DNA of 64,000 nt. It comes from Dehalococcoidia bacterium (GTDB lineage: Bacteria > Chloroflexota > Dehalococcoidia > SpSt-223). Position 1 is the stretch's first letter. Each line of letters starts with the position of its first letter. This document shows, piece by piece, positions 6,144 to 62,744 of the stretch. A program made the translations under genes and the position numbers. The notes beneath the pieces were generated by a model. The model saw only the letters and a program-made list of their open reading frames with translations. It ran no database searches and was not told where the DNA came from. Location: contig JANWZD010000006.1 in the NCBI GenBank assembly GCA_025054935.1, positions 24,228-88,227 on the forward strand, given 5' to 3'.

Positions 6144-6200
6144 AATAGAGCTCATCGTGCGTTCGGCCTGCGATCAATCGAAACCGCCCGGGAGAGTGCA

Positions 6201-7862: not shown

Positions 7863-7896
7863 GCGGCCGCTCTGCTTTGCCGAGCCGTGGCTTTTC

Positions 7897-9237: not shown

Positions 9238-9320
9238 CGCCGGCGGGCAGTCGTCGGGGCGGAGCGTCGCAGCAAAGGCGGCCAGTTGCTGACTGAGCGA
9301 CGGGGCTGACGTAGCGACGC

Positions 9321-9575: not shown

Positions 9576-9900
9576 TCACTCCCTCCTTCACCGTTCTCCC
9601 TGCTTCTCGAACCGATCCAGCTGCAGACTGTGCACCTTGCCTGCACAGTTGCAGTGTATCACATAAGAAGGCGATAAGACGAGGGGAAGTTGCACACGAT
9701 CCTGCGTCATTTCGACAGCAGGTGCCGCAGACGTTTTCTCAACAACCGAGGGCGATGCCATGAGCGTGATCGGTCTTGAAGGTGGACGACCGAACGCTCG
9801 ACGTAATCTTCCGTTCCGCCGCACCTCCCCGCTTGACATGGCCGCTCCCTCTCTCGCACGATGCCGGTCGTACGTTCAGAGAGTGCGCGAGGAGGAGCTG

Positions 9901-18360: not shown

Positions 18361-19373
18361 TGTTTCCCGAACACCTCGAACATCAGCCGCTGTGCTTCTT
18401 CGCGGCGCGATTGATCCATCAAAATGCCGGGGACCTGAAAGGTCGGCAGATCGACAACATCTTTGTACGCCTCGAACTTTTTCCGGACTTCGTCGGGCGT
18501 GCCGGCGATGCTCATTGCGTCGATCATGTCGTCCGTCACGGCGTCGATCATCGCCGTCATATCATGCTTGACATGGAATGCCTCTTGGATCGCCATCCGC
18601 TGCTTGGTCCATCCTTGCGAATCGGGGATGTGGCTGTAACTGCGGGTGGTGAGATAGAAGGCGATCTGGGCAGCCGCTTCGCGCCGCGCTTGGGCGCGGT
18701 CATTCGAGATCGCCGTCAAGATCCAGGTCGAAAGGGTGAAGTCCTCCCGCTTTCGGCCAGCCCGGCGGAGCCCGATGGCGAGGTTCGGCTCGATGAACTC
18801 CTTGATAAACCGGATCGAGTTGACCGGGTGTCCCGCTAATCCTTCACACAGTTCACCCGTCAGCTGAAGCATCTTCTCGCGGACCGCTGCCATGTAGATC
18901 GGAATTGTCGGCTGGTAGACCTTTGCGCGCCGGAACTGCCGGAGATCGATCTGGTAAAACCGCCCCTCATACTTGATCCGCTGCGGCTCGTGCGCCGCCC
19001 AGCAGCGGCGCAGGATCTCAATCAGTTCGCGCATCTGCGGGACCGGATGCTCAACAGTCACCGAACTTTCGACTTGGTTTTGGCGCGGCGTCCCCCCGGC
19101 AAGGCCGAGGACAAACCGCCCCTCGGAGATTTCGTCAAGGTCGGCAGCGGCAACTGCAGTGACAGTACAGGCACGCACAAAGGCGCGCGCGATTCCGGAG
19201 CCGAGACCGATCTTCTTGGTGTTGAGCGCCATTGCGGTGAGGCCGATGAAGCCGTCGACCCCGGTATTGTCATTGAACCAGACGAGGTCAAAGCCGGCGT
19301 CTTCTGCCTGCTGCGCTGCTTTGACAGCGTCTGCGATCGTCCGTCCGCCGACGGACACCGCTCGTTTCTGCAT
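18357..19373 (-). CDS. LLM-class flavin/F420-dependent oxidoreductase embedded in the glycosyltransferase operon
   Basis: 338 aa. Luciferase-like family signatures (AEDAGFDLVWFNDN, FVLGLAGG). Its stop overlaps the downstream GT-C start (ATGA). Confidence 0.75.
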   Translation of the reverse strand: MQKRAVSVGGRTIADAVKAAQQAEDAGFDLVWFNDNTGVDGFIGLTAMALNTKKIGLGSGIARAFVRACTVTAVAAADLDEISEGRFVLGLAGGTPRQNQVESSVTVEHPVPQMRELIEILRRCWAAHEPQRIKYEGRFYQIDLRQFRRAKVYQPTIPIYMAAVREKMLQLTGELCEGLAGHPVNSIRFIKEFIEPNLAIGLRRAGRKREDFTLSTWILTAISNDRAQARREAAAQIAFYLTTRSYSHIPDSQGWTKQRMAIQEAFHVKHDMTAMIDAVTDDMIDAMSIAGTPDEVRKKFEAYKDVVDLPTFQVPGILMDQSRREEAQRLMFEVFGKH

Positions 19374-19402
19374 GGACCCTCCTGCTGATTGCCGGAAGCA
19401 TT

Positions 19403-21535: not shown

Positions 21536-22370
21536 GACGCGCCGAGCATTCTAGCAACCGGAGCCGACAGTAGCTGGCTGTGCATGGACCTGCTTCCGCT
21601 AGGCCGCCGGCAAAGAGCAGCACAATGTCGGCGGCAGGACTGACCACTGTCTCTCCTCGTCAGCGTCCCCCAACTCGGAGTTCTCGCGGCAGGGAGCGTC
21701 CACGACATGCAGCCCATGAGCGCGCTCGATGCTGGACGAGGCGCGTGTCCGCCTCGATGAGTGCGATACGACCTCGGCGTGGGCAGGCAACGGCTGCCGC
21801 TCCAGTTCGGTGCGCAGCCAGCGCTTCGCGGCAGTCCGGCGCCTGCCCGCAAGGGAGCGCGGCGCAGTTCCGCGCCCCTGCAGACGGAACGCGGCTGGAG
21901 CGCCGGGCATCCGACAGCCTAGCAGGGGTCCGCGCTAGGGGAGGAGCATGCCGCGCGGAGGACATCTTGGCCGTTCGTCCGGCGGACCGACAATCGTCAG
22001 GGATCGAGATGCGGCGCCGCCCTGCAAGCCGTCGCGTGCGGCACTGCCCGAGGCCGAGAGCGCGCTTCGCCCGCAGCAGCGCCGCGACAGGCGGCTGCGC
22101 TGCCGCAACGCGCCGAGATGACGGGGAGGAAGTAGCGTCGCCGTCCTGCAGAGCCGAGGAGGAGGGCAAGCGCCAAGCGCGCTCGTTCGGACTGCTGCCG
22201 CTGAGAGCCGGTCCGCCTTTCGGCGCACGATGCGCGAGGAAGCAGGACGCAGCCCGCAATCGCGCGGGCCGCAGGGAGGCAGGGGAGCGTCAGCCGACGA
22301 GGCGCCGCGCTGCGCAGCAACGCGATCGCCTCACGCCGCTGCGAGGGAGACGCAGCCGCAAGGCGCTCGA

Positions 22371-31089: not shown

Positions 31090-33477
31090 ATGGATGAGGA
31101 ACGAGCGCTCGCGCGGCTCCGCGTGCTCGACCTGACAGGACCAGCGGGGAGCTATGCGGGAAAGTTGTTCGCCGAGCTTGGGGCGGATGTTCTGAAAGTC
31201 GAGCCGCCCGGCGGGGATCCTGGCCGCACCTACGCGCCGCTCTCGGGCGAGCGGTCGCTCCACTGGTGGTATCACAACACCTCAAAGCGATCGGAGATCA
31301 TCGACCTCACCACCCCAGCCGGCCGCCAGCGGCTGTGGCAGCTCGTCGAAACGGCCGACGTGCTCCTCGATACCGACCCGTGGGTCCTAGAGGCTGCGGG
31401 CTTCACGGAAGAAGCGGTCGCGCGCCGAAACCGGCGGCTGATTTGGGGCAGCCTCACCCCCTTCGGGTTGACGGGCCCGCGACGCCACTGGAAAGCAACC
31501 GACCTTATTGCCTCGGCGCTTGGGGGGCTGCTCTATCTCGGCGGCATGCCCGACCGTCCGCCATCGTGGCCGGGAGGGGAGCAGTCCTACCTGCTCGGAG
31601 CGAATGCGTTAGCGGTCGGGGTGATGCTCGCGCTCCTCGCCCGGATCAAAACTGGCGAAGGGCAGCGCGTTGACGTCTCGCTGCAGGAAGCAACCCTCGT
31701 CGCGACCGAGAATGCGATCGGCTTCTGGACCTTTCTCGGTCAGGTGCGCAGGCGCCTTGGAACGCGCAGCTTTGGCGGCCCGAAGATGATCTGGTCGACC
31801 GCCGACGGCTGGGTTGCCGCCCATATCGGCGGCCGCTGGGATGACCTGCTCGACTGGATGGAGACGCACGGCGTCGAGACACGCCGGTTCCGTTCTCCAG
31901 AATGGTACGACAACGACTACCGGCGCGCTCACTTCGACGAATTCGAACCCGTGCTCCAAGAGATGCTCAACCGGCTGCCCAAGGAGCAAGCGTACGCCGA
32001 GGGACAGCGGGCGCGGATCGTCTTCGGTCCCATTCGCACCATGGCCGAAGTGCGGCAGGATATCCAGCTGAACGCGCGCGACTTCTTTGTCGACCTGCCG
32101 ACCCCCGAGGGGCCCGTCACGAGCGCCGGCGCTCCCTATCGGCTCTCTGTCACCCCGTGGCGGCTTGGCGGCCCCGCCCCTGCTCCCGGCGAGGGGGCTG
32201 GAGACTGGCGGGAACCTCCTGTCGACGAGCCCGTTCGCCCCAGCCCTCCCGATGCGTTCGGCCGGCTCCCCTTGAGCGGCATCCGCATCGTCGACTTCGG
32301 CACCAACGTCGTCGTTCCCCTCACCTGCAAGCTGCTTGCCTCATTCGGCGCCGAGGTGATCAAAGCCGAAGGACGCTCTCGGCCCGAAGGCCAGCGCAAC
32401 ACCCCGGTGCCCCGCTCGCCGCGCGCCGATACGCTGAATACGAACTGGCTGTTCCTCAATGTCAACACTGACAAGCGGTCGCTCGCCGTCAACATGACCG
32501 TGCCCGAGGCGCAGCAGCTGGTCAGGGAGATCATCGCCCAATCGGATATTGTGATCGACAACTTCGGCGTCGACCCTCTGCCGAAGTGGGGCATGAGCGC
32601 CGAGGAGCTTTTCCGCCTCCGGCCAGACCTGATCATCGTCCGCTGCTCGGTGCACGGGCGGACAGGACCGCTCTCGAACTACGTCGGGCTGGGCAACTCG
32701 ATCATGGCAGTCGCCGGGCTGAACTCGATCACCGGCTTCGCGGGCGACCCGCCGGTCGGAACGTGCACCGCCCATCCCGACTACAGTTCAAACGCCCACC
32801 ACGCCCTCTTCTCCATCCTCGCAGCGCTGTACTACCGCGAACGGACAGGCCGCGGACAGGTGATCGACCTCTCTCAGACCGAATCGACGGTCGCTTGGCT
32901 CGGGCCGGCGCTGCTCGAATACACGGTGAACCATCGCGTTCCGGGGCAGCCGAACAACCGCCATCCCCAGATGGCGCCCCATGGCGTCTATCCCGCTGCC
33001 GGCGACGACCGCTGGATCGCCATCGCCTGCCCCAGCGACGCAGAATGGCGCGCGCTTGCCGCTCAGATCGATCCCGCTCTGCTCGATGATCCGCGCTTCC
33101 GTACCCTCGCCGACCGCAAGGCAAACGAAGACCTGCTCGACGCCCTCATCCGGGATTGGACGGTCTCCCAGGAGCCGTTTGCGCTGATGGAGCGCCTGCA
33201 GGCAGCGGGGGTCCCTGCCGGCGTCGCCCAGACCGGCCAAGATCTCGTCGAGCGCGACGAGCACCTTGCGGCGCGAGGCGCTTTCACTCTCCTCGACCAT
33301 GAAGAGGCGGGACCCGTGACGGTTATCTCGCCGCACTTCCGCCTGTCGCGGACTCCGGGGCGGATCGGCGCGCCGCCGCCGCTCCTCGGCGAGGATAACG
33401 ACTGGGTCCTGACCGAACTGCTGGCGCTCGACGAGGAGCGGGTCGCCCAGCTCTACATCGCCGGCGCAGTCGAGTAG
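31090..33477 (+). CDS. tandem-fused double CaiB/BaiF family III CoA-transferase (two complete CoA-transferase domains in one 795 aa protein)
   Basis: Two copies of the family III N-terminal signature: LRVLDLTGPAGSYAGKLFAELGADVLKVEPPGGDPGR (aa ~12) and IRIVDFGTNVVVPLTCKLLASFGAEVIKAEG (aa ~400). Each is followed by a full-length domain. Confidence 0.75.
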   Translation: MDEERALARLRVLDLTGPAGSYAGKLFAELGADVLKVEPPGGDPGRTYAPLSGERSLHWWYHNTSKRSEIIDLTTPAGRQRLWQLVETADVLLDTDPWVLEAAGFTEEAVARRNRRLIWGSLTPFGLTGPRRHWKATDLIASALGGLLYLGGMPDRPPSWPGGEQSYLLGANALAVGVMLALLARIKTGEGQRVDVSLQEATLVATENAIGFWTFLGQVRRRLGTRSFGGPKMIWSTADGWVAAHIGGRWDDLLDWMETHGVETRRFRSPEWYDNDYRRAHFDEFEPVLQEMLNRLPKEQAYAEGQRARIVFGPIRTMAEVRQDIQLNARDFFVDLPTPEGPVTSAGAPYRLSVTPWRLGGPAPAPGEGAGDWREPPVDEPVRPSPPDAFGRLPLSGIRIVDFGTNVVVPLTCKLLASFGAEVIKAEGRSRPEGQRNTPVPRSPRADTLNTNWLFLNVNTDKRSLAVNMTVPEAQQLVREIIAQSDIVIDNFGVDPLPKWGMSAEELFRLRPDLIIVRCSVHGRTGPLSNYVGLGNSIMAVAGLNSITGFAGDPPVGTCTAHPDYSSNAHHALFSILAALYYRERTGRGQVIDLSQTESTVAWLGPALLEYTVNHRVPGQPNNRHPQMAPHGVYPAAGDDRWIAIACPSDAEWRALAAQIDPALLDDPRFRTLADRKANEDLLDALIRDWTVSQEPFALMERLQAAGVPAGVAQTGQDLVERDEHLAARGAFTLLDHEEAGPVTVISPHFRLSRTPGRIGAPPPLLGEDNDWVLTELLALDEERVAQLYIAGAVE

Positions 33478-33492: not shown

Positions 33493-35268
33493 CTATGCCG
33501 GCCGTCGGGGAAGACGAGGCAAGCGGAGCCGGCTGACCATCCTGCCGCTCCCCCGCTGGCGGTCCTCAGCCGCTCCCGAGCGCCGCCGGGCCGCTCTGAC
33601 GATGAGGACGGCGAGCGCGACCGCAACGAGAAGTGCGCCGAGCTCTACGCGGGGGATGAAGAGGAAGACGCCGAGGAGGAGGAGCAGGAAGCGGCTGGCA
33701 GCGCCGAGCGGCGCGCGGGTTCCAAGCGCGAGGCCGACCGCCAGCGCCGCCGCGCCTTCGACGACGAGGATCAGGGCGGCATCGGGCCCCCGCTCGAGAA
33801 ATGCCGCACGCGTCGCCACAAGCGCTGCGAGCAGCAGCGGTATCGCCCAGACAATGCGGCCGAAGAGGGCGCGCGCTTTCCATCGTCCGGCGAGGACACT
33901 CGCTCCGCCAATCCAGAAGAGCGCCGCCACGATTGCGCCCGGCGGGTCGGGGAGCGCACCCCAGCTGATGAGAATGACAACGCCGACCGCCGCTGCCGGC
34001 AGGAACAGCAGTCCCGCTATCAGCGCGAGGAGGCTGAAGAGCAGCGCTTCCATCATGGGCGCAACGCTGAACCAGCGCTGGCCAAGCGCAGCCAGCAGCC
34101 CGCTCACCTCGTTCAGCCGCTCGACCAGAGCGAGGAAGAGCAGAAGCGCGCCCGCAAGCGGCACGTGCCGAGCCGCCCAGCCGAGGCCGGCGAGCAGGTC
34201 GCGCACAGTCGCCCACCGCGGCCGGGCGATCAGCGCGCCGCCGGCAGCAATCGCCGCCGCTGTTCCGAAACTGACCGCGGGGGAAAGCAGAGCGAGCAGG
34301 CCGAGCAGCGCGGCCGGCGCGGCAAGGACCATCGCTATCCCGAGCGTGGCCGGCGCGAGCGGCGGAAGGGCCGGGAGCGGCGGCGGCCAAACCCAGCGCC
34401 AGCGATCGGCGCGCCGCCGCCCGACGACGATCAGGAGAGCGAGCGCTGCCGGCGGCACGAGGCGCCACGCGATCTCTCCGACCCCGCCGAGCGCCTGCCC
34501 TGCGAGCAGCGCGCCGAGCCCAAGCGCAGGCGGGGTGAGCGGAAGCAGCGCGTACAGGGTCGGAAGGGCACCCGCGCCGGCACGGCCGTCCGGCGCGACG
34601 AGGAACGGCGCGCTGAGCGCCGTCGCCGCCGGCGCGGCGCCGTAGGGACGAAGGAGGGCAGCCAAGCGTGGAACAAGCCGCGCCCCCACCATGCTGCCGG
34701 CAAAGAGGACGATGGGCGCGACCCACTCGCTGAGCAGAGCGAACGACGAGGCGAAAAGCCCGCCCGCGCCGTAGAACAGCGCGGATGCCTCAGCGACAAG
34801 ATCGAGCGGGGCAGCGCGCAGCGGCTCGGGCAAGCGGTCGCGGAAGGCCAAGGCGGCGGTCCAGCCGACCACGCCAAGCAGCGCCGGCCAGCCTGCCGCG
34901 CGCCGCCCCGCTTCAGCAAGCGCAAGCAGGAACACAGCCGCCACCAGCGTGTCGGTCCAACTGGGCACGCCGCCGGCGCCGAGGCGGAGGAGCGCCTCAT
35001 GCCGATAGGCGAGAGCGCCGACAACCAGCGCCGCAAGCAGCAGGTCGAGGGGGGCGATCGCTCCGCGCTGACCGGTCGGTGCCGCAGCAAGGAACGTCGC
35101 CACGAGCGCCCCGCCGATAAGCACCGTCGGATCCTGCTCGCCCGCGAGGATCAGCAGCAAGAACCCGACCGCGCCAAGCGCGGCGAGCCAGCGTCCTGCC
35201 TTCCCCACGAGGCTGCTCTCTGCCGGAGGAGGCGGCTGCAAAGCCGGGAACGGGCGAACGCGACCCAT
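33493..35268 (-). CDS. polytopic membrane protein (Ala/Leu/Gly-rich; possible transporter permease, family unassigned)
   Basis: Very hydrophobic ~590 aa product. Start set at internal ATG 35268 (MGRVRPF...), because the track start 35436 would overlap the divergent cupin gene. Function unknown. Confidence 0.4.
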   Translation of the reverse strand: MGRVRPFPALQPPPPAESSLVGKAGRWLAALGAVGFLLLILAGEQDPTVLIGGALVATFLAAAPTGQRGAIAPLDLLLAALVVGALAYRHEALLRLGAGGVPSWTDTLVAAVFLLALAEAGRRAAGWPALLGVVGWTAALAFRDRLPEPLRAAPLDLVAEASALFYGAGGLFASSFALLSEWVAPIVLFAGSMVGARLVPRLAALLRPYGAAPAATALSAPFLVAPDGRAGAGALPTLYALLPLTPPALGLGALLAGQALGGVGEIAWRLVPPAALALLIVVGRRRADRWRWVWPPPLPALPPLAPATLGIAMVLAAPAALLGLLALLSPAVSFGTAAAIAAGGALIARPRWATVRDLLAGLGWAARHVPLAGALLLFLALVERLNEVSGLLAALGQRWFSVAPMMEALLFSLLALIAGLLFLPAAAVGVVILISWGALPDPPGAIVAALFWIGGASVLAGRWKARALFGRIVWAIPLLLAALVATRAAFLERGPDAALILVVEGAAALAVGLALGTRAPLGAASRFLLLLLGVFLFIPRVELGALLVAVALAVLIVRAARRRSGAAEDRQRGSGRMVSRLRLPRLPRRPA

Positions 35269-35352
35269 TGGCGGGATTATGCCGTTCCCCGCTCCCGCTC
35301 GTCGCCTGTTGACAGCGCGTGCCGCCGTCGGTAGCCTCCTCTCGGAGGCACG

Positions 35353-36120
35353 ATGACCCGCCCGCTGATCGATTTCATCCACGTTGACTCGCTGCCGTGG
35401 CAGCAAGAGCGCTCGCCGAGCGCCAATCAGCCTCACCGCTATCGGCGTCTCAGCGAAGACGAGGAAACGGGAGAGCAGACGCTGCTCGTCGAGCTTCCGG
35501 CCGGCTGGCGCATGACGGACGATGGGTGGCTCGACGTCGATGACGAACTGTTTCTTCTCGGCGGCGACCTCACGCTGAACGGCGAGCGCCTAACGAAGTA
35601 CAGCTATCTCTTCATCCCTGCCGGCCAGCTGCGGCGCGGTGTCCGGAGTGAGGGAGGAGCGCGCCTGCTTCAATTTCGACGCGCCGCCGCAGCCTTCCAC
35701 CCGGCAGCGGCGGACAGCCCCCAAGCTGACCTGACGCGAGCGATTGGCCCGCTCAATCTCCGAACGATGCCGTACGAGCGGCCCCAGACGCCCAACTTCC
35801 CTGCCGGAGCAGGCCGCAAGACGCTCCGACGCGACCCCGTGATGGGCGACGGCTTCTGGGTCATCGCGCTGCTGCCGCATTGGATCAGCCCGTTGACGGA
35901 GAAGCACACCTTCAGCGAGGAGAACTACGTCCTCGAAGGCGAGATCGAGACGAGCGTCGGCGTGATGACGCCCGGCGCCTATCTCCATCACCCGCCGGGG
36001 GCCGTTCATGGACCGATGCGCTCGCGGCCCGGCTGTCTCATCATCACGCGGGCGGGCGGGCCGTTCCACACCGACTACGAGCCTGTTTCCGGCGACTACG
36101 CCTTTCCGGAAGAAGTGTGA
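35353..36120 (+). CDS. cupin-fold protein (ChrR-like / DUF4437-like bicupin)
   Basis: ATG 35353 with GGAGG SD. Cupin-type motifs (GDLTLNGERL...YLFIPAG; GEIETSVG...HHPPGAVHGP). Its stop overlaps the next gene's start (TGATG). Confidence 0.5.
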   Translation: MTRPLIDFIHVDSLPWQQERSPSANQPHRYRRLSEDEETGEQTLLVELPAGWRMTDDGWLDVDDELFLLGGDLTLNGERLTKYSYLFIPAGQLRRGVRSEGGARLLQFRRAAAAFHPAAADSPQADLTRAIGPLNLRTMPYERPQTPNFPAGAGRKTLRRDPVMGDGFWVIALLPHWISPLTEKHTFSEENYVLEGEIETSVGVMTPGAYLHHPPGAVHGPMRSRPGCLIITRAGGPFHTDYEPVSGDYAFPEEV

Positions 36121-51470: not shown

Positions 51471-51941
51471 TCACGTTGGCCGCTTCCTGACCAGCAGCGT
51501 ATGCTGAAACGTAAGCACAGTCTCGCCACGTTGGTTAACAATGCGGTTGTCAAGCCGGATCACCCCCCGGTCTGCCCGGCTCGTCTCGCGGGTCTCAGTG
51601 ATCGTCACTTCATTGTGAATGGTGTCCCCCGGGCGCACCGGGCCGTGATAGCGCACGCTCTCGACGCCGAGCAAGGCGAGCAAGGTGCCGGTCACCAACG
51701 GCTCTGTCGACGCGAGGCCGATCGAGAGCGCGAGCGGACCAGGCGCGATGCGCCCCCCAAAGGGCGACGCGGCAGCGTATTCCTCATCGAGGAACTGCGG
51801 ATTGTTGGCGCCGATAAGGCCGGCGAAGAGCACGATATCCGCCTCGGTGATGGTGCGGCCGTCGGTTCGAAAGCGCTCGCCGACGGCAAACTGGTCGAAC
51901 CAGCGACCGAAGCGCACTGGCTGTGCAGCCGGATGGTCCAT
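51471..51941 (-). CDS. MaoC-like dehydratase (hotdog fold)
   Basis: 156 aa. GRTITEADIVLFAGLIGANNPQFLDEEYAA matches the MaoC dehydratase N-terminal motif. Confidence 0.75.
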   Translation of the reverse strand: MDHPAAQPVRFGRWFDQFAVGERFRTDGRTITEADIVLFAGLIGANNPQFLDEEYAAASPFGGRIAPGPLALSIGLASTEPLVTGTLLALLGVESVRYHGPVRPGDTIHNEVTITETRETSRADRGVIRLDNRIVNQRGETVLTFQHTLLVRKRPT

Positions 51942-54320: not shown

Positions 54321-54525
54321 CGACCTCGCCGTTCCTCACCACCAAGTCGTGGCACGCGGCCACGATGGCGTGGCCGCCCGAAGCGAGGCGCTCCCACTGC
54401 TCTCGCGAGCGATGAGGAGCGCTTCGCCGCTATTCCGGATGCTTCGGAAACGCCAGAGCGTGGTGGGTTCGCGCCTTTTGGAAATCTGAACGCGTGGTTC
54501 TCCCACGCCGCGTGGAGGGTCGTGC

Positions 54526-55906
54526 GATGGTGAACGGCGTCGGGCCAGCGCGGACAGCGCGCGAGATCTGGCAAACCGCGCTGGGGCAACTCGAACTCCA
54601 AGTCAACCGGACCAGCTACCTCACCTATCTGAAAGACACGACCGGGTACAGCTTCGACGGACAGTGCTTCACGATCGTCGCCCCGAACACTTTTGCCCGA
54701 GATTGGCTTGACGGCCGCCTCGCCTCGACCGTGAAGCGGACGCTCATCGACATCGTGGGCGCTCCGGTTGATGTCCGCTTTGTCGTGCGGCCAGAGGAGA
54801 CAACCTCGCGCGCCCCCTCCACCCCCCTCGAAGAGTGGGCGGACTCTCAGCCGCTTGCCGTGCGCAAAGCGCGGCTGAACCCTCGCTACACCTTCGACTC
54901 CTTCATCGTCGGCGCGAGCAACCGCCTCGCTCATGCCGCTGCCGAAGCTGTCGCCGCCCAACCGGGGAGCGCCTACAACCCCCTCTTCATCTGGGGGGGC
55001 GTCGGGCTGGGCAAAACGCATCTCCTCCACGCGATCGGGCACCGCGTCGAAGCGCGGGGGCTATCGGTGATCTATGTCACCTCCGAAACGTTCACGAACG
55101 AGTTCATCCGAGCGATCCGCGACCGGCAGAACGACGCCTTTCGAGAAAAATACCGCAGCGTCGACTTGCTTCTCATCGACGACATTCAGTTCCTCGCCAC
55201 CAAAGAGCAGACGCAGGAAGAGTTTTTCCATACCTTCAACGACCTGCATAGCAATGGCAAGCAAATCGTCATCACCTCAGACCGCTCGCCGAAGGTGATG
55301 CCGTCTCTCGAAGATCGGCTGCGATCGCGGTTCGAATGGGGACTGATCGCCGATATCGAAGCGCCCGACTTCGAGACAAGAGTGGCAATCCTCGAAAAGA
55401 AGGCGCGCGACTGCAACGCCCAAGTACCTCGCGAAGTGCTCGAGCTGATCGCGCACAAGTTCCAGAACAACATCCGCGAACTGGAAGGCTCGCTTAACAA
55501 GGCGCTGATGTTCGCGCGCACCCACGGCGTCCCGCTCACGCTCGAGGTCGCGCATCAAGCGCTCTTGGGGGGCACCCAGACAATCAACCGCCGGCGGGTC
55601 ATCACGCCGCGGCTCGTCATTGAAACTGTCGCCGCCTATTACCGTGTCGACCCGAGCGACCTCCGCGGCAAGCGCCGGGATCAGCACATCACTCATCCGC
55701 GCCACGTCGCGATGTACATCATCCGCGAAGAGACGCAGTGCACCTATCAGGAGATCGGGGCTGAGCTCGGCAAGCGCGACCACTCCACCGTTATGCACGG
55801 CTGCGAGCGGATTGCCTCAGAGCTGAAAACAAACCAGCAGCTTGTGCGCGAGGTGAACGAGATCCGCACGCTGCTCTATCAGCAAGGGAGCGGGGGGATC
55901 AAATAG
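54526..55906 (+). CDS. dnaA: chromosomal replication initiator protein DnaA
   Basis: ATG 54526 (MVNGVGPARTAREIWQTALGQLELQV); an in-frame GTG at 54494 is an alternative. AAA+ motifs GGVGLGKTHLLHAIGH and LLIDDIQFL. C-terminal DNA-binding domain (HGCERIASELK). Confidence 0.9.
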
Positions 55907-57311
55907 CCGGGCGCGCAAGGGCGACAATGTCGACCGGCAGACCCCGCTCGTCAAGCGCGAGGATCGCCTCCGCGAGCTGTTCGGCGCGTTCCGCAGTGAC
56001 AAGCCGCGTCGCGTTGATCATGAATTTCAGGCGCAATTCTTCGGGGGAGAGCGGGTTGTCTGGCCCGCCGCGGTTTGCCATCACTCGTTCCTCAACCACC
56101 CGGCCATCGCGGAAGTGGACCCGCACGATCGCGGGAAACTGGTACGGATAGATCGCGTCTGCCTCCGGGTCGGCATACGGCTCGACCTTCGCGGCAAGCG
56201 CAAGCACCCGGGGGTCGCGCGCCTTTTCATCGGTGAAATCGTCGAACGAAACCCCAAGCCCGCTCCCGCCGAGGAGGGCGGTTGCGACTGTGAACGGTCC
56301 GCTGAACTGCGCATGGTAGCCGCTCTGGGGGCGGATCTTCTCCTCGCGCGGCTGACCGATCGTCCGGAGGGTCGGGCCGGCAACGCCAAGCTCGATCCGC
56401 TCGACTTGGTCGGGGTCGAGCGGACCATACTTTCGCCGGATTGCGATGGCGGCGTCGATCCCGCCGTGGGTGTAGTGGTTGGCAGGATAGGGCTTGTAGA
56501 AGATCTTCGGGATTGACCACTCCTCGCCCAGCCCGCCGACGACATTCGCCGGGTCGAACCGAGCATCGATGAACGCGTTATAGAGGCCGAACCGGCCTTC
56601 TAGGACGGTCGGCGGCCCGGTATAGCCCGCTTTGGCCAAGAAGGCAGCGAGGAGCCCGCTGTGCGCCGCCCAGCCGCAGTGCAGCCGCTTGACCGACCCG
56701 CCAGTGCGGTTCGCCTCGATCACGCCGCTCGCGAAGCTGGCAGCGATCCCAAGCGCGTTTCGAATGCCATCCACGCCGAGCCCAAGCAGCTTCGCCCCAA
56801 GGGCAGCCGCGCCCATCGTTCCGCAGATCGCGGTGGTATGCCATCCTCTGTCGAACCAGACATTCCCCTCCGGCAGCTGCCCGCCCATTCCGATGCGAAC
56901 GCAGACCTCGATCCCCACTGCGGCGGCAGCGATCGCGTCGCGCCCGCTCGCCCCAACCGCTTCTGCCAAGGCGAGCGTTGCCGGAACAATCGACGCGCTC
57001 GGATGGAGAATCGACGGGAGATGGGTATCGTCGAAATCGAGGCTGTGAGCGAGCGTGCCGTTCACCTGCGCCGCGACCGGCGCGGGGAAGCGGCCGGCCC
57101 GCCCGACTATCCCCGCCTCCTCCCGTCCCCCCCACGCCTCCGCGAGAGCGATCACGCCGTCGGCCAGCCCTTCAGCGGCAGCGGCAAGACAGATGCCGAT
57201 GGTGTCGAGGATCCGATCTTTGACACTGCTCACCACTGGCGGGGGCAGCGTTTCAAAGGTGACGGAGGCAGCAAATTCGGCGAGCTGGTGGCTGAGCGTC
57301 CGGTCGGTCAT
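55899..57311 (-). CDS. MmgE/PrpD family protein (second copy)
   Basis: 470 aa. N-terminus MTDRTLSHQLAEFAASVTFETLPPPVVSSVKDRILDTIG is the classic PrpD-family start. Its 3' end overlaps the dnaA stop by 8 nt convergently. ATGA-coupled to the upstream cyclase gene. Confidence 0.8.
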   Translation of the reverse strand: MTDRTLSHQLAEFAASVTFETLPPPVVSSVKDRILDTIGICLAAAAEGLADGVIALAEAWGGREEAGIVGRAGRFPAPVAAQVNGTLAHSLDFDDTHLPSILHPSASIVPATLALAEAVGASGRDAIAAAAVGIEVCVRIGMGGQLPEGNVWFDRGWHTTAICGTMGAAALGAKLLGLGVDGIRNALGIAASFASGVIEANRTGGSVKRLHCGWAAHSGLLAAFLAKAGYTGPPTVLEGRFGLYNAFIDARFDPANVVGGLGEEWSIPKIFYKPYPANHYTHGGIDAAIAIRRKYGPLDPDQVERIELGVAGPTLRTIGQPREEKIRPQSGYHAQFSGPFTVATALLGGSGLGVSFDDFTDEKARDPRVLALAAKVEPYADPEADAIYPYQFPAIVRVHFRDGRVVEERVMANRGGPDNPLSPEELRLKFMINATRLVTAERAEQLAEAILALDERGLPVDIVALARPAI

Positions 57312-58120
57312 GCCGCCACCGCCAGCGGCCGCACCGGGCAGCCTGTCGCGCCGACAAGGCGAAGCGGAATGCAGATGAAGAGAAACTCGTAGACGCCCGC
57401 TGCCGCCAGTGCCTCGAGGTTCACGTTTTCGAGGATATAAATGCCGGCGTCGACGAGGAGCACTTTATGAGCAGGCAGCAGGCTATGCCCTGCTCCTGGC
57501 GCCAGCCATTCGTAGGCCATCGAGTCATGGCCGGTCGCGCGCACCCGGCGCTCGGCCAGCCATTCGGCCGCCGAGACATCTGGCCCCGGCACGCCGCTCT
57601 CGTGGCCGAGATAGGTCTCCGGCTCGCTCCAGTGCCGCGCCCAGCCCGACCGGATCAGCACCACATCCCCGGGCTGGGGCTCCCCGATCCCTTGCCGACG
57701 CGCCACCGCGCGCAGCTCCTCGGCCGTGATTTTCTCCGCCGGCGGGAGCGTGGCGACGCCGCGCGCCCCCGCGACATCGAGCAGGAGGCCGCGGCAGAGC
57801 ATCGGCGCGATCGTCTCGACCCCGAGCTGCTTGAACCGCCCCCCAGTCTGCGCCTCCGCCGCATCAACGCCGCCATGCAGCATGCCCCTAAAGCCGACGT
57901 GGGCCAGGGCATCGATGTGCGTGCCGGTATGACCACCAAGCACCATCATCTCGTTCGCGGCGGTCACCCCGTCGGCGCGCACCGAGTCGCCATGACGCCG
58001 AAGCAACGCCATTCGGAAGCCGGGATGGTTCGGCGAGACCGGGATCGTCGGCTCGAGCGGGTGACTGAGGTCGAACACCCGACTGGATTGCAGAAGCGTT
58101 TGCCAGGAGGCTCCTGTCAT
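57308..58120 (-). CDS. cyclase family protein (kynurenine formamidase-like metal-dependent hydrolase)
   Basis: 270 aa. HTGTHIDALAH motif of the putative cyclase / arylformamidase family. Confidence 0.7.
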   Translation of the reverse strand: MTGASWQTLLQSSRVFDLSHPLEPTIPVSPNHPGFRMALLRRHGDSVRADGVTAANEMMVLGGHTGTHIDALAHVGFRGMLHGGVDAAEAQTGGRFKQLGVETIAPMLCRGLLLDVAGARGVATLPPAEKITAEELRAVARRQGIGEPQPGDVVLIRSGWARHWSEPETYLGHESGVPGPDVSAAEWLAERRVRATGHDSMAYEWLAPGAGHSLLPAHKVLLVDAGIYILENVNLEALAAAGVYEFLFICIPLRLVGATGCPVRPLAVAA

Positions 58121-58230
58121 CGTCCACTCCGTTCACGCGAAGTCGTGGTCGGATTGTACGGGCGGTGCGCGTACACTCACGCCGACGCCTCGGTTCAGCG
58201 CTCTCGCGGCGCAGGGCAGCGCGAGCGCAA

Positions 58231-59127
58231 TTACGTGCGGTCAGCCGCGCCGAGGCGGGCAGCAAGCGCAAGGAGCGCGCGGGCGCGCTCGACAACGGGC
58301 AGGTCGACAAACTCACCGCTCGGAAGCCGGAGCGCGCCGATGCCGTGGTCTTCCGCCTGCTCGGCAGCCTCAACGATCGCATGAGCCGCTTCCAGTTCAG
58401 CGTCGCTCGGCGTGTAGACCCGGTTGATAATCGGAAGCTGACGAGGGTGGATGGCGCTCTTGCCGAAGAAGCCGAGCGCCCGTCCGGCGCGGGTGTCGCG
58501 CTCGAGGCCCGCTTCGTCGTCAAGCCGCGGGTAGACGCTATCCACCGGAGCGCGGACCCCCGCGACGCGCGAGGCGAGGACAAGCCGAGATTTGGCATAG
58601 AGCAGCTCTCGCCCGTCGGGCGACTCCGGGCGAGCGTCGATATCGGCGGCAAAATCGACAGCGCCGAAGGCGAGCGCTAAGACCCGCGAGTCGGCCTCGG
58701 CGATCTCAGCTGCGCGCCAGACGCCGACCGCGCTTTCAATGCCGAGGACAAGCTTGACCGAGCCAGCGGGGAGCCCCGCCGCTGCTTCGGCATCGCTCAC
58801 CCAGTCCGCGACGAGCCGAACCGAACGCGCGCTCTCCATCTTCGGAACGCGGATCCCCGCCAGCCCCGGCCGCACGACGGCGCGCACTTCCGCCTCGGTC
58901 AAGCCCGTCTCGGGGTGGTTCACCCGCACAAAGACGAGCGGTCCGCCAGAACCTGCCCGTGCCGCGACCGCCTCCGCGACCATCGCGCGCGCCCGCTCTT
59001 TCTCGCCGCGCGGCACCGAGTCCTCGAGGTCGAAGATGACTGCGTCTGCCTCCGACTGCGGCGCCCGTTCAAGAAGCTTGGCGTTGTTGCCCGGGGCGTA
59101 GAGCCAGCTCCGAATTGGAGGGATCAC
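58231..59127 (-). CDS. HpcH/HpaI-family CoA-ester lyase (CitE-like; citramalyl-CoA / malyl-CoA lyase type)
   Basis: 298 aa. N-terminus RSWLYAPGNNAKLLERAPQSEADAVIFDLEDSV is the CitE / malyl-CoA lyase signature. Start overlaps the stop of the upstream CoA-transferase by 1 nt. Confidence 0.75.
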   Translation of the reverse strand: MIPPIRSWLYAPGNNAKLLERAPQSEADAVIFDLEDSVPRGEKERARAMVAEAVAARAGSGGPLVFVRVNHPETGLTEAEVRAVVRPGLAGIRVPKMESARSVRLVADWVSDAEAAAGLPAGSVKLVLGIESAVGVWRAAEIAEADSRVLALAFGAVDFAADIDARPESPDGRELLYAKSRLVLASRVAGVRAPVDSVYPRLDDEAGLERDTRAGRALGFFGKSAIHPRQLPIINRVYTPSDAELEAAHAIVEAAEQAEDHGIGALRLPSGEFVDLPVVERARALLALAARLGAADRT

Positions 59128-60329
59128 TAGATGACCCCCTTCGCTTTCAGCTCGGCGAGGCGCTCCGGTCCGATCCCGAGTTCTCCGTAAACCGCCTCGT
59201 TATCCTGCCCGAGGCGACGCCCCGCCCAGCGAATCCGTCCTGGGGTCTCCGACATGCGGAACATGACGTTCTGCATTTTGATCGGGCCAAGATCTTCATC
59301 TTGAACGGTGACGATCGAGTTGAGCGCCTGATACTGCGGGTCATTGAAGATATCGGCGATGTCGTAAATCGGCGCGACTGCTGCCTCCGCCGCCTCAAAC
59401 TTCTCCATGACCTCTTTCAGATCATGCTGGGCGATCCAGCCGCCCACATATTCATCGAGAAGATCCGCATGCTTGGCGCGCTCCGCGCCGCTCTTAAACC
59501 ACGGCTCATCGATCACCTCCGGATGGCCCACAAGGCGCATAACGCGCTCCGCGATGTTCTGGGCGCTTGTGCTGATCGCCACCCATTTGCCATCGCGCGT
59601 CCGGTAGATATTGCGCGGCGCGTTGTTCACGGAGCGGTTGCCCGAGCGCTGCTGGATGATTCCAAGCTGGTCGTAGACGATCGGCTGAGGGCCAAGGATG
59701 CTGAAGATCGGCTCGATGATCGCCAAGTCGATCACTTGGCCTTTGCCGCCGCGAGCATCGCGATAGTAGAGCGCCATCAGGATCGCATTCGCGCCCGCCA
59801 ACCCAGCGATCCCGTCCGCCAAGCCAAACGGCGGCAGGGTGGGCGGTCCATCGGGTTCGCCAGTGATCGCCGCAAACCCGCTCATCGCCTCGGCGAGCGT
59901 CCCGAAGCCCGGCCGCTGGGCATAGGGACCGAATTGGCCGAAACCGGTTGCCCGCATCACTATCAAGCGCGGGTTGACAGCGAGCAGCCGGTCCGGCCCG
60001 AGGTTCCACTTTTCGAGGGTGCCGGGGCGGAAGTTCTCGATAAAGACATCCGCCGTTTCCACCAACTTGAGCAGGATCTCCTGCCCTTCCGGATGACTGA
60101 AGTTCAGCGTGATCGCGCGCTTATTCCGGCTGACGATCTTCCACCAAAGACCGTGCCCCTGCTTGGTGTAGCCATGCGTGCGGAGACTGTCGCCGCGCGG
60201 GTGCTCTATTTTGATGACATCGGCGCCGAAATCCCCGAGATACATCGCCATCAGCGGGCCCGCGAGGATCGTGGCGGCGTCCAAGACGCGAATGCCCTCT
60301 AAGGGCAGTGGACGCCCGTTGGTCGTCAT
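59127..60329 (-). CDS. CaiB/BaiF family III CoA-transferase
   Basis: 400 aa. GIRVLDAATILAGPLMAMYLGDFGADVIKIE signature; conserved Asp region (GLADGIAG). Confidence 0.8.
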   Translation of the reverse strand: MTTNGRPLPLEGIRVLDAATILAGPLMAMYLGDFGADVIKIEHPRGDSLRTHGYTKQGHGLWWKIVSRNKRAITLNFSHPEGQEILLKLVETADVFIENFRPGTLEKWNLGPDRLLAVNPRLIVMRATGFGQFGPYAQRPGFGTLAEAMSGFAAITGEPDGPPTLPPFGLADGIAGLAGANAILMALYYRDARGGKGQVIDLAIIEPIFSILGPQPIVYDQLGIIQQRSGNRSVNNAPRNIYRTRDGKWVAISTSAQNIAERVMRLVGHPEVIDEPWFKSGAERAKHADLLDEYVGGWIAQHDLKEVMEKFEAAEAAVAPIYDIADIFNDPQYQALNSIVTVQDEDLGPIKMQNVMFRMSETPGRIRWAGRRLGQDNEAVYGELGIGPERLAELKAKGVI

Positions 60330-60420
60330 CAGTTCTGTCCCCCGTGCGAAGTGGATACGAACCGGCGCGTTCCAGTGCTAGAAGTAGGATACTGCACCGG
60401 TGCCCGCTCTTCATGGTCGC

Positions 60421-61197
60421 CTACCGGCTGCCGAGCCGCTCCCGCAGCCGCGCTGCCGCAGCGACCGGGTCGCTCGGCAGATGCAGCGCCCACGGCGGCG
60501 CGCTCTCCCCGATCACGCCGACGAGAGGCGCGGCGCCGCGCAGACGGTCGAGCGCGCCTGCCCCTTCCACGAGGAGCGCGGGCGCGTCGAGCCGCTGCGC
60601 GAGCCGCGCCACAATTGCGAGGGGAACGCATTCGCCGAGGGAGAGCACCGGCACGCCGTCGCGCGCGAGCAGCACCCCAACGGCGAGCGCCCCGATATCC
60701 GTGCCCATCAGCCCGGCGAGGATCACGGGCGCCCCTTCGCGCTCGAAGGCACCGAGCAGCCGAATGAGACGGGCACGCAGCACCTGGCCGGCAAGGTGGG
60801 CCGCCTCGGCGGGCACGTCGTCGCGCTGCAGGATGATCGCGCGCGCCGCCCTCGCCACCCACTCCTCGAGCGAAAGAAGCGCCCCCAGTTCCTCGAGGCG
60901 GCGGAGCAGCATGGCGTAATCCGCCTGCCGCAGCGCGGTCGCAAGCGCCGCCTCCGTCTCCGGCGGCGCCGCGCGCGTGGCGACCGCCGCCGCCGCCTGC
61001 GCGGCGCTCGTTCCACGCTCGCGAAGCTGGCGGATGATCGCCAAGTCTGCCTCAGAATAGAGCCGGCGGCCGCTGGCGGTCCGCTGCGGTCGCGGCACGC
61101 CGTAGCGACGTTCCCAGGCGCGGATCGTATCGGCGGGGACCCCCGTCCGCTTCACGACTGCGCCGATCGTCAGCAGCGGCGTCGATGATTCGCTCAT
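60421..61197 (-). CDS. MerR-family transcriptional regulator with a C-terminal B12-binding-like (Rossmann) domain lacking the canonical DxHxxG His
   Basis: N-terminal MerR HTH (LLTIGAVVKRTGVPADTIRAWERRYGVPRPQRTASGRRLYSEADL). C-terminal VILAGLMGTDIGALAVGVLLARDGVPVLSLGECVP mirrors the cobalamin-binding-domain architecture, but with GTDIG in place of DxHDIG. Confidence 0.65.
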   Translation of the reverse strand: MSESSTPLLTIGAVVKRTGVPADTIRAWERRYGVPRPQRTASGRRLYSEADLAIIRQLRERGTSAAQAAAAVATRAAPPETEAALATALRQADYAMLLRRLEELGALLSLEEWVARAARAIILQRDDVPAEAAHLAGQVLRARLIRLLGAFEREGAPVILAGLMGTDIGALAVGVLLARDGVPVLSLGECVPLAIVARLAQRLDAPALLVEGAGALDRLRGAAPLVGVIGESAPPWALHLPSDPVAAAARLRERLGSR

Positions 61198-61407: not shown

Positions 61408-62121
61408 CTACCGGCGACAAGATACGCCATGACCCGGCGCACCGCGAACTGCCGCTCGGCCATGTTCGTCTCCAACCAGCGGCGCCGGGAGCGCCGCGGC
61501 GTTCCCCCGCCCACGCGACGAGCGCTCGAGACTTCCTCTCAACTCGGCAGCAAGACGAGCGAGCAGAACCAGCGGCTTCTGGAGCTCGACCTTCGGCGCG
61601 AGTTCGCGGACCGCCGCTTGCCGGCGGCGCGCCTCCTCAAGCGGTGCCGGAGGGAGCAGCCAGCGCGCAAGCACCGGCTCGGCAGGCGTCCCCCCGACGC
61701 AGTCGAGGAGATAGAACTGCGGCGCGCGTCCGACCAGGCCGAGGTTGGCGGCAGCGGGGTGCCCCTCCGGCGGGCGGGGTCGATGGCGGACCGGAACCTC
61801 CTCCCCTCGGCGCAAGAAGCGCAACTCCGCCTCTGCGTTCAGCTGCTCGAGCAGGCGCAGGCGTCGCCGCCGGCCTTCAAGGCGGCCGCGGACCAGAACG
61901 AGCGCCGCTGGTCCGCCCGCTGCCGCCGCACGGGAGACGTTCTGGACGAGAACCCCGCCGACGACGAGAACCGCCGCGCCCAGCCGGCCGTTCGCGACGA
62001 GGCTCCAACGCCGTTCCACCCTCAGCTGCTCGGCCCGATAGCGGGCGCTCCGTCCGCAGTAGAAGGAAGCTGCCGGGAACGCAGCCGCCGCCGAGGGGGT
62101 GGCTGTCTGGAGGAGCGACAT
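61408..62121 (-). CDS. doubtful ORF (Ala/Arg/Leu-rich hypothetical protein); possibly non-coding or a decayed partner gene of DUF3090
   Basis: The only long open frame between the DUF3090 and MerR genes. Composition (very few Asp/Lys/Ile/Asn) resembles an alternative-frame artefact of GC-rich DNA. Confidence 0.15.
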   Translation of the reverse strand: MSLLQTATPSAAAAFPAASFYCGRSARYRAEQLRVERRWSLVANGRLGAAVLVVGGVLVQNVSRAAAAGGPAALVLVRGRLEGRRRRLRLLEQLNAEAELRFLRRGEEVPVRHRPRPPEGHPAAANLGLVGRAPQFYLLDCVGGTPAEPVLARWLLPPAPLEEARRRQAAVRELAPKVELQKPLVLLARLAAELRGSLERSSRGRGNAAALPAPLVGDEHGRAAVRGAPGHGVSCRR

Positions 62122-62132
62122 TCTTGTGCGCG

Positions 62133-62636
62133 CTACTCCATCGCGAAGTGCCCATTCGCTCGAACGCAGACATGACCGTCCGGGTTGATCGGCGCGCCGC
62201 AGAGGGGACAGCGCGGGCGACCGGCCGCGACGATCTCCTCAATCTGGCGGCTCAAATTTTTCAGCATTGCGCGGTTCGCACGGCAGACGAAATCTGGTGC
62301 TTCGTTCTCGCTGGTTTCGGGAAGATAGACAACAACGACGAAAAGGTCGCTCGATTCATCGAAGCCGAGCCCCAGCCGCCCGACCGGCGCGTCGATCGTT
62401 TCGAACGTGGAAGCGCTTCCCGTCGGCACCATGCCTTCGCCCGCATGTTCATCCATCTGGGCGAGGAGCTGCTCAATGGCCAAGCCGAGCGCTTGGAGCT
62501 GCTCCTTTTCGATCCAGAGGGAAGCCAATTCCTGCTCGTTCGCGATCAGCAGCCGGAAGGTGCGACGGCCCGGCGGGCCATAGGACTCGGCGTCTAAGCG
62601 GACGACCGGCCCAAAATCGCGTGGTGTGCTCGCCAT
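62133..62636 (-). CDS. DUF3090 domain-containing protein
   Basis: Start at ATG 62636 (MASTPRDFGPVVRLDAESYGPPGRRTFRLLI). C-terminal CPLCGAPINPDGHVCVRANGH zinc-ribbon-like tail, typical of DUF3090 (TIGR03847-like). Confidence 0.65.
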   Translation of the reverse strand: MASTPRDFGPVVRLDAESYGPPGRRTFRLLIANEQELASLWIEKEQLQALGLAIEQLLAQMDEHAGEGMVPTGSASTFETIDAPVGRLGLGFDESSDLFVVVVYLPETSENEAPDFVCRANRAMLKNLSRQIEEIVAAGRPRCPLCGAPINPDGHVCVRANGHFAME

Positions 62637-62744
62637 CGGTCGCGAGTTGTCCCTTCGCCAAAATTCCGCCGCGCCCGAGGATGCAGTCGTCCCCGGCTGT
62701 CGGCAATTATACGGAACCATCTTGGATCTCCTGGGAGGGCGGCA

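Follow-up and report, generated by a model that had tools for sequence, protein, structure and literature searches.

A cross-phylum module of cyclase-family hydrolase, MmgE/PrpD-family, CoA-transferase and CitE-like lyase genes, probably for the breakdown of masked diacids, in an uncultured Dehalococcoidia bacterium

The subject of this study is a cluster of four genes on the minus strand of a 64-kb stretch of high-GC DNA (63-71%; hereafter, the window) from an uncultured member of the Chloroflexota (Dehalococcoidia). The four genes are the local core of a module that is kept together in at least three bacterial phyla, and they probably encode a breakdown pathway for a four-carbon-backbone diacid masked as an amide, imide or lactone. 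The explanation that we favor, and hold as a whole with somewhat more confidence than doubt, is that the genes form one translationally coupled catabolic operon, in which a hydrolase, a PrpD-like enzyme, a CoA-transferase and a lyase would act in that order. The initial annotation of this stretch had already taken the cluster for a catabolic unit whose last steps are the CoA activation of a dicarboxylate and C–C cleavage of the resulting CoA ester, and this part of its reading is supported by the present analysis.

Gene organization

The four genes and the regulatory gene upstream of them are as follows.

60421-61197, minus strand: MerR-family regulator, 258 amino acids (aa); Pfam MerR_1/MerR helix-turn-helix only
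59127-60329, minus strand: family III (CaiB/Frc-type) CoA-transferase, 400 aa; Pfam CoA_transf_3, E 1.6e-122
58231-59127, minus strand: CitE-like acyl-CoA (beta-hydroxyacyl-CoA) lyase, 298 aa; Pfam HpcH_HpaI, E 1.4e-48
57308-58120, minus strand: cyclase-family (PF04199) metal-dependent hydrolase, 270 aa; Pfam Cyclase, E 5.9e-30
55899-57311, minus strand: MmgE/PrpD-family protein of the cis-aconitate decarboxylase (CAD)/iminodisuccinate (IDS) epimerase branch, 470 aa; Pfam MmgE_PrpD_N and MmgE_PrpD_C

The Pfam scores of all five open reading frames (ORFs) lie far over the gathering scores, and a separate gene call made on the contig agrees exactly with the limits of the genes of the module, so that the coordinates, the strand and the start/stop overlaps of the four genes are confirmed as first annotated. 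The stop of the CoA-transferase gene and the start of the lyase gene share 1 nt, and the cyclase stop overlaps the PrpD-family start by 4 nt. The spacing is 110 nt between the lyase and cyclase genes and 91 nt between the CoA-transferase gene and the MerR gene, which lies upstream on the same strand. Because the 3′ end of the PrpD-family gene lies 8 nt inside the 3′ end of the convergent dnaA gene, the unit ends there. Database entries 100% identical to all four proteins exist, labeled merely "MmgE/PrpD family protein", "cyclase family protein", "CoA ester lyase" and "CoA transferase".

Conservation and accessory genes

One genome per species was scanned with an alignment of PrpD-family orthologues. 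At least 575 relatives were confirmed, which need not all fall in the orthogroup of the module, and the best 80 loci were kept; among the candidates scored, 4912 relatives of the PrpD-family protein had E <= 1e-30. Further loci were added and analyzed by tblastn and by clustering of all ORFs, with neighbors taken within 9 kb. Counts given below out of 67 refer to the loci with enough flanking DNA around PrpD-family orthologues (50-83% identity).

The 80 loci that were kept come from the Chloroflexota, the Acidobacteriota (Vicinamibacteria) and the Actinomycetota, the last including Amycolatopsis, Streptomyces, Nocardia, Micromonospora, Rhodococcus, Pseudonocardia and the freshwater Planktophila. 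Within 9 kb of the PrpD-family gene, 64 of the 67 loci have a cyclase orthologue, 61 have the lyase and 60 have the CoA-transferase, and in 39 of 89 loci all three genes lie directly upstream of the PrpD-family gene on the same strand, as they do in the window. This arrangement is far beyond chance. The initial annotation had suggested, from the repeated paralogous sets, that the pathways are lineage-specific; this fails for a module found in at least three phyla. The CoA-transferase shows the highest conservation (59-86% identity to the window protein; the cyclase reaches 48-83%, the PrpD-family protein 50-83% and the lyase 31-81%), and the tightest-conserved gene pair, overlooked earlier, is that of the cyclase and PrpD-family genes.

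The most frequent accessory gene, in 41 of the 67 loci, encodes a ring-opening amidohydrolase of about 480 aa that resembles hydantoinase, allantoinase and dihydropyrimidinase; its best PDB match is the D-hydantoinase 1nfg (1.7e-58), and it scores below the cut-off of every NCBIfam equivalog. Since this amidohydrolase joins the cyclase–PrpD pair in most relatives, an amide- or imide-type precursor is suggested over a free C5 diacid. An IclR regulator, absent in the window, accompanies the module in 35 of the 67 loci, Liv-type ATP-binding cassette (ABC) uptake systems in 19-26 loci and transporters of the major facilitator superfamily (MFS) in 10-11 loci, and the presence of regulators and uptake systems beside the module argues for catabolism. 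A flavoprotein (FAD_binding_2) that resembles fumarate reductase, TcuA and KstD occurs in 15 loci, adjoining the amidohydrolase gene in seven of them and on a plasmid of Rhodococcus gordoniae. A second PrpD paralogue (26-39% identical) is frequent in the Actinomycetota loci. Asp/Glu-racemase-like, aldehyde dehydrogenase, thiolase-like and DUF4437 genes occur in five to eight loci each and give no consistent pointer to the substrate.

The Rhodococcus gordoniae plasmid, pDND3A, carries the full form of the module, annotated in two divergent operons, one with the order FAD protein, dihydroorotase family, CoA transferase and MFS, and the other with the order IclR, CoA ester lyase, cyclase and MmgE/PrpD. 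At the other end of the range, the four-gene core is found without the amidohydrolase on a Streptomyces plasmid, and Burkholderia has a CoA-transferase–lyase–PrpD set from which the cyclase gene is absent. Because the Burkholderia set lacks the cyclase and the Streptomyces plasmid set the amidohydrolase, the lower three steps are expected to act on the free acid. Judged from gene content, the four genes would thus be a self-sufficient lower pathway, to which the amidohydrolase, with or without the flavoprotein, may be added as an optional upper branch.

Two of these loci show further features around the module. On pDND3A (locus L090, 11454-21347), the module lies beside an amidase gene and an ATP-type hydantoinase A/B pair, and a MaoC–CoA transferase–MmgE/PrpD–acyl-CoA dehydrogenase cluster, built like the published methylsuccinate cluster, lies a few kb away; the region looks like a catabolic island for branched diacid derivatives. 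In the 81% relative (locus L088, 3182-9122), the lyase and cyclase genes are separated by a 6-kb insertion. It encodes an MFS transporter, a symporter pair of DUF485 and SSF (ActP-like) proteins, and a GAF/LytS-type kinase together with a LytTR regulator, which suggests uptake and sensing of a small carboxylate in that lineage.

The description of the cluster as MerR-headed holds for the window and for its nearest relative (83%; locus L089), in which a MerR orthologue (51% identical) occupies the same position; it does not extend to the 81% relative, from which MerR is absent, or to other lineages, in which IclR is the usual regulator and fills this role. The MerR protein of the window has a weak full-length likeness to CarH (91.2 bits; cut-off 400). 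Even at E 0.1 it shows no Pfam domain for B12 binding, and light or B12 control of the operon of the CarH/LitR kind was rejected on this ground. The motifs that we take to be the B12 ligands of CarH (ExH and DxHxxG) are not visible by eye in the sequence either, and the sensor domain may be degenerate or repurposed. Upstream of the MerR gene lie a DUF3090 gene and a gene for a protein of 237 aa without a family match (61408-62720, minus strand); DUF3090 is also found upstream of MerR in locus L089, with a MutS_V-domain gene in between.

The MmgE/PrpD-family protein

By sequence, the PDB entries closest to the PrpD-family protein are IDS epimerase (5e-43) and CAD (about 1e-39), with true PrpD far behind (1e-8). 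The predicted structure (predicted local distance difference test score, pLDDT, 84) gives the same ranking, with template-modeling (TM) scores of 0.79-0.85 for CAD, 0.79-0.83 for IDS epimerase and 0.65-0.76 for the 2-methylcitrate dehydratases (PrpD/MmgE), the latter at 17-20% identity, compared to 27-28% for CAD and IDS epimerase, the closest solved relatives. Assignment as 2-methylcitrate dehydratase was rejected on these weaker PDB and TM matches and on NCBIfam scores of 70.4 and 35.3 bits against cut-offs of 950 and 575. Sequence and modeled fold thus place the protein in the CAD/IDS-epimerase branch rather than among the 2-methylcitrate dehydratases.

Gonner et al. showed that the PrpD-family protein encoded in the itaconate cluster of pseudomonads acts as an (S)-(R)-methylsuccinate isomerase, and argued that all members of the family bind a 1,4-dicarboxylate backbone and act via a C2 enolate (PMC12290011). 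The binding residues in IDS-epimerase numbering are His85, Asp88, His99, His150, Lys198 and Lys266, and the two epimerases carry a second base, Tyr145 in IDS epimerase and Tyr148 in methylsuccinate isomerase (PMC12290011). In the window protein, the six binding residues correspond to H89, D92, H103, H158, K208 and K273, all invariant in 84 orthologues. Both domains, the fold and these six residues are those of the MmgE/PrpD superfamily. The position of the second-base tyrosine, however, is occupied by Phe153, likewise invariant in the 84 orthologues. A two-base epimerase of the IDS-epimerase or methylsuccinate-isomerase kind was rejected on this replacement (84 of 84) and on the lack of a conserved acyl-CoA dehydrogenase in the module.

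A similar comparison can be made with mammalian CAD, for which eight residues are essential (human Asp93, Thr97, His103, His159, Lys207, Lys272, His277 and Tyr318; PMC6789909). Six of the eight are kept in the window protein (D92, T96, H103, H158, K208 and K273), whereas His277 is replaced by Asn278 and Tyr318 by Thr317, both invariant in the 84 orthologues. Fungal CAD itself departs from the mammalian enzyme at four of the eight active-site residues (PMC6789909), so that decarboxylase activity of the window protein would be compatible with its two replacements. The orthogroup signature thus consists of the six family residues together with Phe153, Asn278-His279 and Thr317. Because the six residues are kept, the second-base tyrosine is lost and His277 and Tyr318 of CAD are replaced, the protein is predicted to act on a succinate- or maleate-backbone diacid by a one-base mechanism. 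Judged by its residues, it is orthologous to no characterized member of the family.

The cyclase-family hydrolase

PF04199 hydrolases of the kynurenine formamidase and isatin hydrolase type have a His-x3-His-x-Asp-x3-His metal-binding motif (PMC5341072), which is found in the cyclase-family protein as H64-x3-H68-x-D70-x3-H74 (GGHTGTHIDALAH) and is invariant in 19 orthologues, as are several arginines. This motif is the classical metal site of the amide- and lactam-hydrolyzing members. Among PDB entries, the metal-dependent esterase MGS0169 (5ibz; PMC5341072) matches best, followed by isatin hydrolases, and the family also includes a dienelactone hydrolase (trans-dienelactone hydrolase; PMC5341072). 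The score against the arylformamidase equivalog TIGR03035 is 37.9 bits, far under the cut-off of 223.05. An amide bond is the favored target of the enzyme on this comparison, while an ester, lactone or anhydride would also be allowed, and its partner genes indicate a carboxylated aliphatic substrate.

The CoA-transferase and the lyase

None of the four proteins of the module reaches the curated NCBIfam cut-off of any named enzyme. The best models of the CoA-transferase are all dicarboxylate CoA-transferases, and all score below their cut-offs: succinate-glutarate (230.9 bits against 750), the formyl-CoA transferase subfamily (208.6 against 442) and succinyl-CoA:mesaconate (201.5 against 700). 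The model of the mesaconyl-CoA isomerase-type transferase gives only 53.3 bits (cut-off 725). Among PDB entries, its relatives are YfdE, SUGCT and formyl-CoA transferase. Identity is 28% with the enzyme that takes the Ict position in the methylsuccinate-type cluster of pDND3A, a comparator chosen by position rather than a verified Ict.

The lyase scores 229.6 bits against citE (TIGR01588; cut-off 443.4), 171.6 against RipC_Ccl (cut-off 375) and 69 against malyl-CoA lyase (cut-off 500). In the PDB, 1sgj ("citrate lyase, beta subunit") matches it best, ahead of CLYBL, malyl-CoA lyase and 8khl ("acyl-CoA lyase beta chain", 2.4e-30), so that it is about equidistant from the citE, RipC/Ccl, CLYBL and malyl-CoA lyases. 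A subunit of CitDEF citrate lyase was rejected: the citE score is below its cut-off, and there is no CitD or CitF among the genes called over a span of about 6 kb to one side and 4 kb to the other. These results do not show the grouping with citrate lyase beta subunits proper that would have contradicted the initial annotation.

Proposed pathway

In the pathway that we propose, the upper branch, present in most relatives and absent near the window operon, would begin with the flavoprotein, which may adjust the saturation of a ring, and with the cyclic amidohydrolase, which would open an imide- or ureide-type ring. The cyclase-family metallohydrolase would then cleave an amide, lactam, anhydride or lactone to give a dicarboxylate with a substituted succinate or maleate backbone. 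On this diacid, the PrpD-like enzyme would perform a one-base protonation or deprotonation at C2, most likely the hydration of a cis-(alkyl)maleate-type acid that yields a 2-hydroxy (alkyl)malate-type acid; as alternatives, this step may be a decarboxylation or an allylic or double-bond isomerization. The family III CoA-transferase would turn the hydroxy diacid into its CoA ester, which the CitE-like lyase would split into an acyl-CoA and a 2-oxo acid. We infer this order of steps, the type of PrpD-like reaction and the class of substrate from the conserved gene set and the residue pattern described above. In relatives with the upper branch, the starting compound is probably a cyclic imide- or ureide-type ring, whereas the lineage of the window would start from a half-amide or an already opened compound, because the upper branch was not found nearby.

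The linear route employs each conserved gene once, and hydration of an (alkyl)maleate is the reading of the PrpD-like step that leaves no enzyme missing. There is precedent for it in the family: alkylcitrates and substituted maleic acids, the latter in equilibrium with their anhydrides, are interconverted by PrpD-type dehydratases (PMC8697804), and TtnMOPR are credited with building the dialkylmaleic anhydride found in tautomycetin out of 2-oxoglutarate and propionate (PMC11350588). Routes from dihydroorotate/carbamoyl-aspartate, hydantoin-acetate or tricarballylate/citrate (isonicotinate-type) were rejected by reasoning, as they leave the CoA-transferase and the lyase, or the PrpD-like step, without a necessary role.

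A more specific version, which we regard as unlikely, is that the module, together with its hydantoinase-like partner, mineralizes dialkyl-maleimide or dialkyl-maleic-anhydride rings and that the PrpD-like protein is the first alkylmaleate hydratase of its family. Here, the amidohydrolase would open the imide, the cyclase-family enzyme would remove the amide or open the anhydride, and the hydratase, the CoA-transferase and the lyase would follow. Candidate substrates would then be hematinic acid and methyl-ethyl-maleimide, which arise in chlorophyll, haem and bilin breakdown, or microbial and plant dialkylmaleic anhydrides, and the window would hold the lower half of the route.

Several observations weigh against the proposed pathway in its general form. 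In both sequence and fold, decarboxylases and epimerases resemble the PrpD-like enzyme more closely than the known dehydratases do, and hydration is thus argued from the completeness of the pathway and not from homology. The closest structural relative of the cyclase-family protein is an esterase, so that its target may be an ester or lactone as well as an amide. The amidohydrolase, from which the idea of an N-heterocyclic precursor derives, has no homologue in the window or in the loci of its two nearest relatives (L088 and L089). Scans of the operon surroundings for promoters, terminators and inverted repeats returned no signal that exceeded background and did not reveal a MerR-type operator, and the operon structure is accordingly drawn from spacing and synteny. 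Lastly, no description of this gene combination was found in the searchable literature.

Alternative explanations

The initial annotation had assigned the cluster to the catabolism of C5 dicarboxylates of the itaconate, mesaconate or citramalate type. In such a route, the CoA-transferase would act as Ict and the lyase as Ccl, an Ich-like MaoC hydratase elsewhere in the window would act in trans, and decarboxylation or isomerization by the PrpD-like protein would supply the substrate. That a family III CoA-transferase is paired with a CitE-like lyase does parallel the known Ict/Ccl pattern, and RipC_Ccl is the second-best NCBIfam model of the lyase. PrpD-family genes also sit in pseudomonad itaconate clusters, one of them being the methylsuccinate isomerase (PMC12290011). 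The Ich-like MaoC gene (9760-10413, plus strand) lies beside the second PrpD paralogue of the window, 45 kb from the module, and the methylsuccinate-type cluster of pDND3A is close to the module on that plasmid. However, the window operon has no gene for the MaoC hydratase that this route requires, and a MaoC-like gene was found in only 1 of 86 related loci, MaoC being absent from 86 of the 87 loci that were fetched. An acyl-CoA dehydrogenase gene is not conserved in the module, whereas methylsuccinate isomerase genes always adjoin one (PMC12290011). Both the lyase and the CoA-transferase stay under all equivalog cut-offs, the transferase is distant from the Ict-position enzyme, and the epimerase tyrosine is replaced by phenylalanine. 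The near-universal cyclase gene and the amidohydrolase would be left without a role. Thus, the parallel in the CoA-transferase–lyase pairing stands, while the C5 assignment itself appears unlikely.

The same enzymes could also run in reverse for biosynthesis, with the lyase condensing an acyl-CoA and a 2-oxo acid, followed by removal of CoA, dehydration to a dialkylmaleate, and closure or transfer of the anhydride by the cyclase-family protein. This would mirror the anhydride genes of tautomycin and tautomycetin (TtnMOPR, PMC11350588), or the monomers of fungal maleidrides, and PrpD-type dehydratases are able to make substituted maleic acids and anhydrides (PMC8697804). Yet no polyketide synthase or tailoring genes were seen among the loci whose flanking genes were identified; the conserved neighbors are IclR regulators, uptake transporters and the ring-opening amidohydrolase; the module is found in streamlined freshwater Actinomycetota and in many uncultured lineages; and the copy in the window sits among housekeeping genes, beside dnaA. 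We consider biosynthesis improbable, and even more so a central-carbon module of the malyl-CoA/citramalyl-CoA type that would assimilate glyoxylate or acetate, as in the 3-hydroxypropionate bi-cycle and similar cycles of Chloroflexota. The Chloroflexota host would suit the latter, and malyl-CoA lyases belong to the same superfamily as the lyase and are among its PDB matches, but the low scores against the malyl-CoA lyase (69/500) and mesaconyl-CoA transferase/isomerase (53.3/725) models and the equal conservation in non-autotrophic Actinomycetota and Acidobacteriota, with IclR and uptake transporters, speak against it, and the cyclase-family and PrpD-like proteins would have no role. That the genes are functionally unrelated neighbors, or artefacts of high-GC DNA, which yields many long spurious (shadow) ORFs, is hardly credible given the strong Pfam matches of all four ORFs, the 100%-identical database proteins and the gene order conserved across phyla.

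Relation to known systems

The closest known system is the itaconate–methylsuccinate cluster of pseudomonads and Cupriavidus (Ict, Ich, Ccl, Mcd and Msi; PMC12290011), which likewise combines a family III CoA-transferase, a CitE-type lyase and an MmgE/PrpD protein and converts branched succinate-backbone dicarboxylates to an acyl-CoA and a 2-oxo acid. While the two are similar in logic, we note several differences. The module has neither a MaoC hydratase nor an acyl-CoA dehydrogenase, its PrpD-family protein carries Phe153, and its transferase is only about 28% identical to the Ict-position enzyme; it adds a cyclase-family hydrolase and usually a hydantoinase-like amidohydrolase. Furthermore, it is found in Chloroflexota, Acidobacteriota and Actinomycetota, whereas 96% of methylsuccinate isomerases are from Pseudomonadota (PMC12290011).

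TtnMOPR and the genes for maleidride monomers (2-methylcitrate-dehydratase homologues) share with the module the logic of passing from a hydroxy-dicarboxylate to a substituted maleic acid or anhydride. These genes are biosynthetic and lie inside polyketide clusters, whereas the module lies beside regulators, uptake transporters and ring-opening hydrolases, and its direction would be reversed. The individual Ttn proteins are, as we take them to be, CitE-like, CaiB-like and PrpD-like, and the match in families presumably holds to that extent. A cyclic-imide-transforming pathway of Blastobacter reportedly proceeds through an imidase and a half-amidase to a dicarboxylate, and would thus resemble the extended module in having a ring-opening cyclic amidohydrolase, a second amide hydrolase and a succinate- or maleate-type diacid. 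To our knowledge, that pathway uses different enzyme families and has no PrpD-like, CoA-transferase or lyase steps.

At the level of single enzymes, CAD/IRG1 and IDS epimerase have in common with the window PrpD-family protein the catalytic or carboxylate-binding His, Asp, His, His, Lys and Lys, and differ from it at the positions of Asn278 and Thr317 (His277 and Tyr318 in CAD) and of Phe153 (Tyr145 in IDS epimerase); their genomic partners are wholly different. The cyclase-family protein shares the HxxxHxDxxxH motif and the fold family with kynurenine formamidase, isatin hydrolase, MGS0169 and trans-dienelactone hydrolase (PMC5341072), but it forms a distinct orthogroup with invariant arginines, far under the arylformamidase cut-off. 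What is new, in comparison to these systems, is a dicarboxylate CoA-transferase/lyase pathway with two tightly conserved extra partners and an optional ring-opening branch, and this pathway appears to be uncharacterized.

Other features of the window

A second catabolic island lies at 3031-11450, and a second MaoC gene is found closer to the module.

3031-5046, minus strand: flavoprotein resembling old yellow enzyme (OYE)/2,4-dienoyl-CoA reductase
6201-7862, plus strand: aldehyde dehydrogenase
7897-9237, minus strand: divergent PrpD paralogue with a weak C-terminal domain
9760-10413, plus strand: Ich-like MaoC hydratase, outside the module (RipB_Ich 221.5 bits, cut-off 340; Pfam MC_hydratase/MaoC)
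10410-11450, plus strand: luciferase-like monooxygenase
51471-51941, minus strand: second MaoC gene
54494-55906, plus strand: full-length dnaA (TIGR00362, 521 bits), convergent with the PrpD-family gene

The second PrpD-family gene and both MaoC genes had been listed in the initial annotation and are present, except that the MaoC gene ending at 10413 starts at 9760 and not at 9901. The Ich-like MaoC protein shares 50% identity with the MaoC protein encoded in the methylsuccinate-type cluster of pDND3A. The fused double family III CoA-transferase that had also been pointed out is a single ORF of 795 aa (31090-33477, plus strand) with two complete domains; for either half, the highest-scoring models are those of dicarboxylate transferases (succinate-glutarate, 300.8 bits in total), and no cut-off is reached. 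Tandem fusions of CaiB-type domains are unusual, DddD being one of them.

No dnaN was called adjacent to dnaA, the gene on its upstream side encodes a glycosidase of glycoside hydrolase family 2 (GH2), and the cumulative GC skew has no turning point at dnaA. The AT skew is strongly positive (0.27-0.36) at 14000-22000 and 34000-36000. The long minus-strand ORFs at 14378-16540, 16537-18360, 19403-21535 and 33493-35436 have no Pfam match, and the Pfam-less ORFs in the AT-skewed regions adjoin a family 2 glycosyltransferase fusion (13440-15962).

Significance

MmgE/PrpD homologues occur in about one fifth of prokaryotic species and are mostly uncharacterized (PMC12290011). The present analysis defines one coherent orthogroup among them, with a fixed active-site signature and fixed gene partners in at least three phyla, whose cultivated carriers include Rhodococcus, Amycolatopsis, Streptomyces, Micromonospora and Nocardia. 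The anonymous pair "MmgE/PrpD family protein" and "cyclase family protein" is thereby turned into a testable pathway hypothesis, and a new reaction is likely for both of these poorly understood enzyme families. If the substrate is an abundant environmental compound, the module would represent a missing route of carbon and nitrogen turnover in soil and water.

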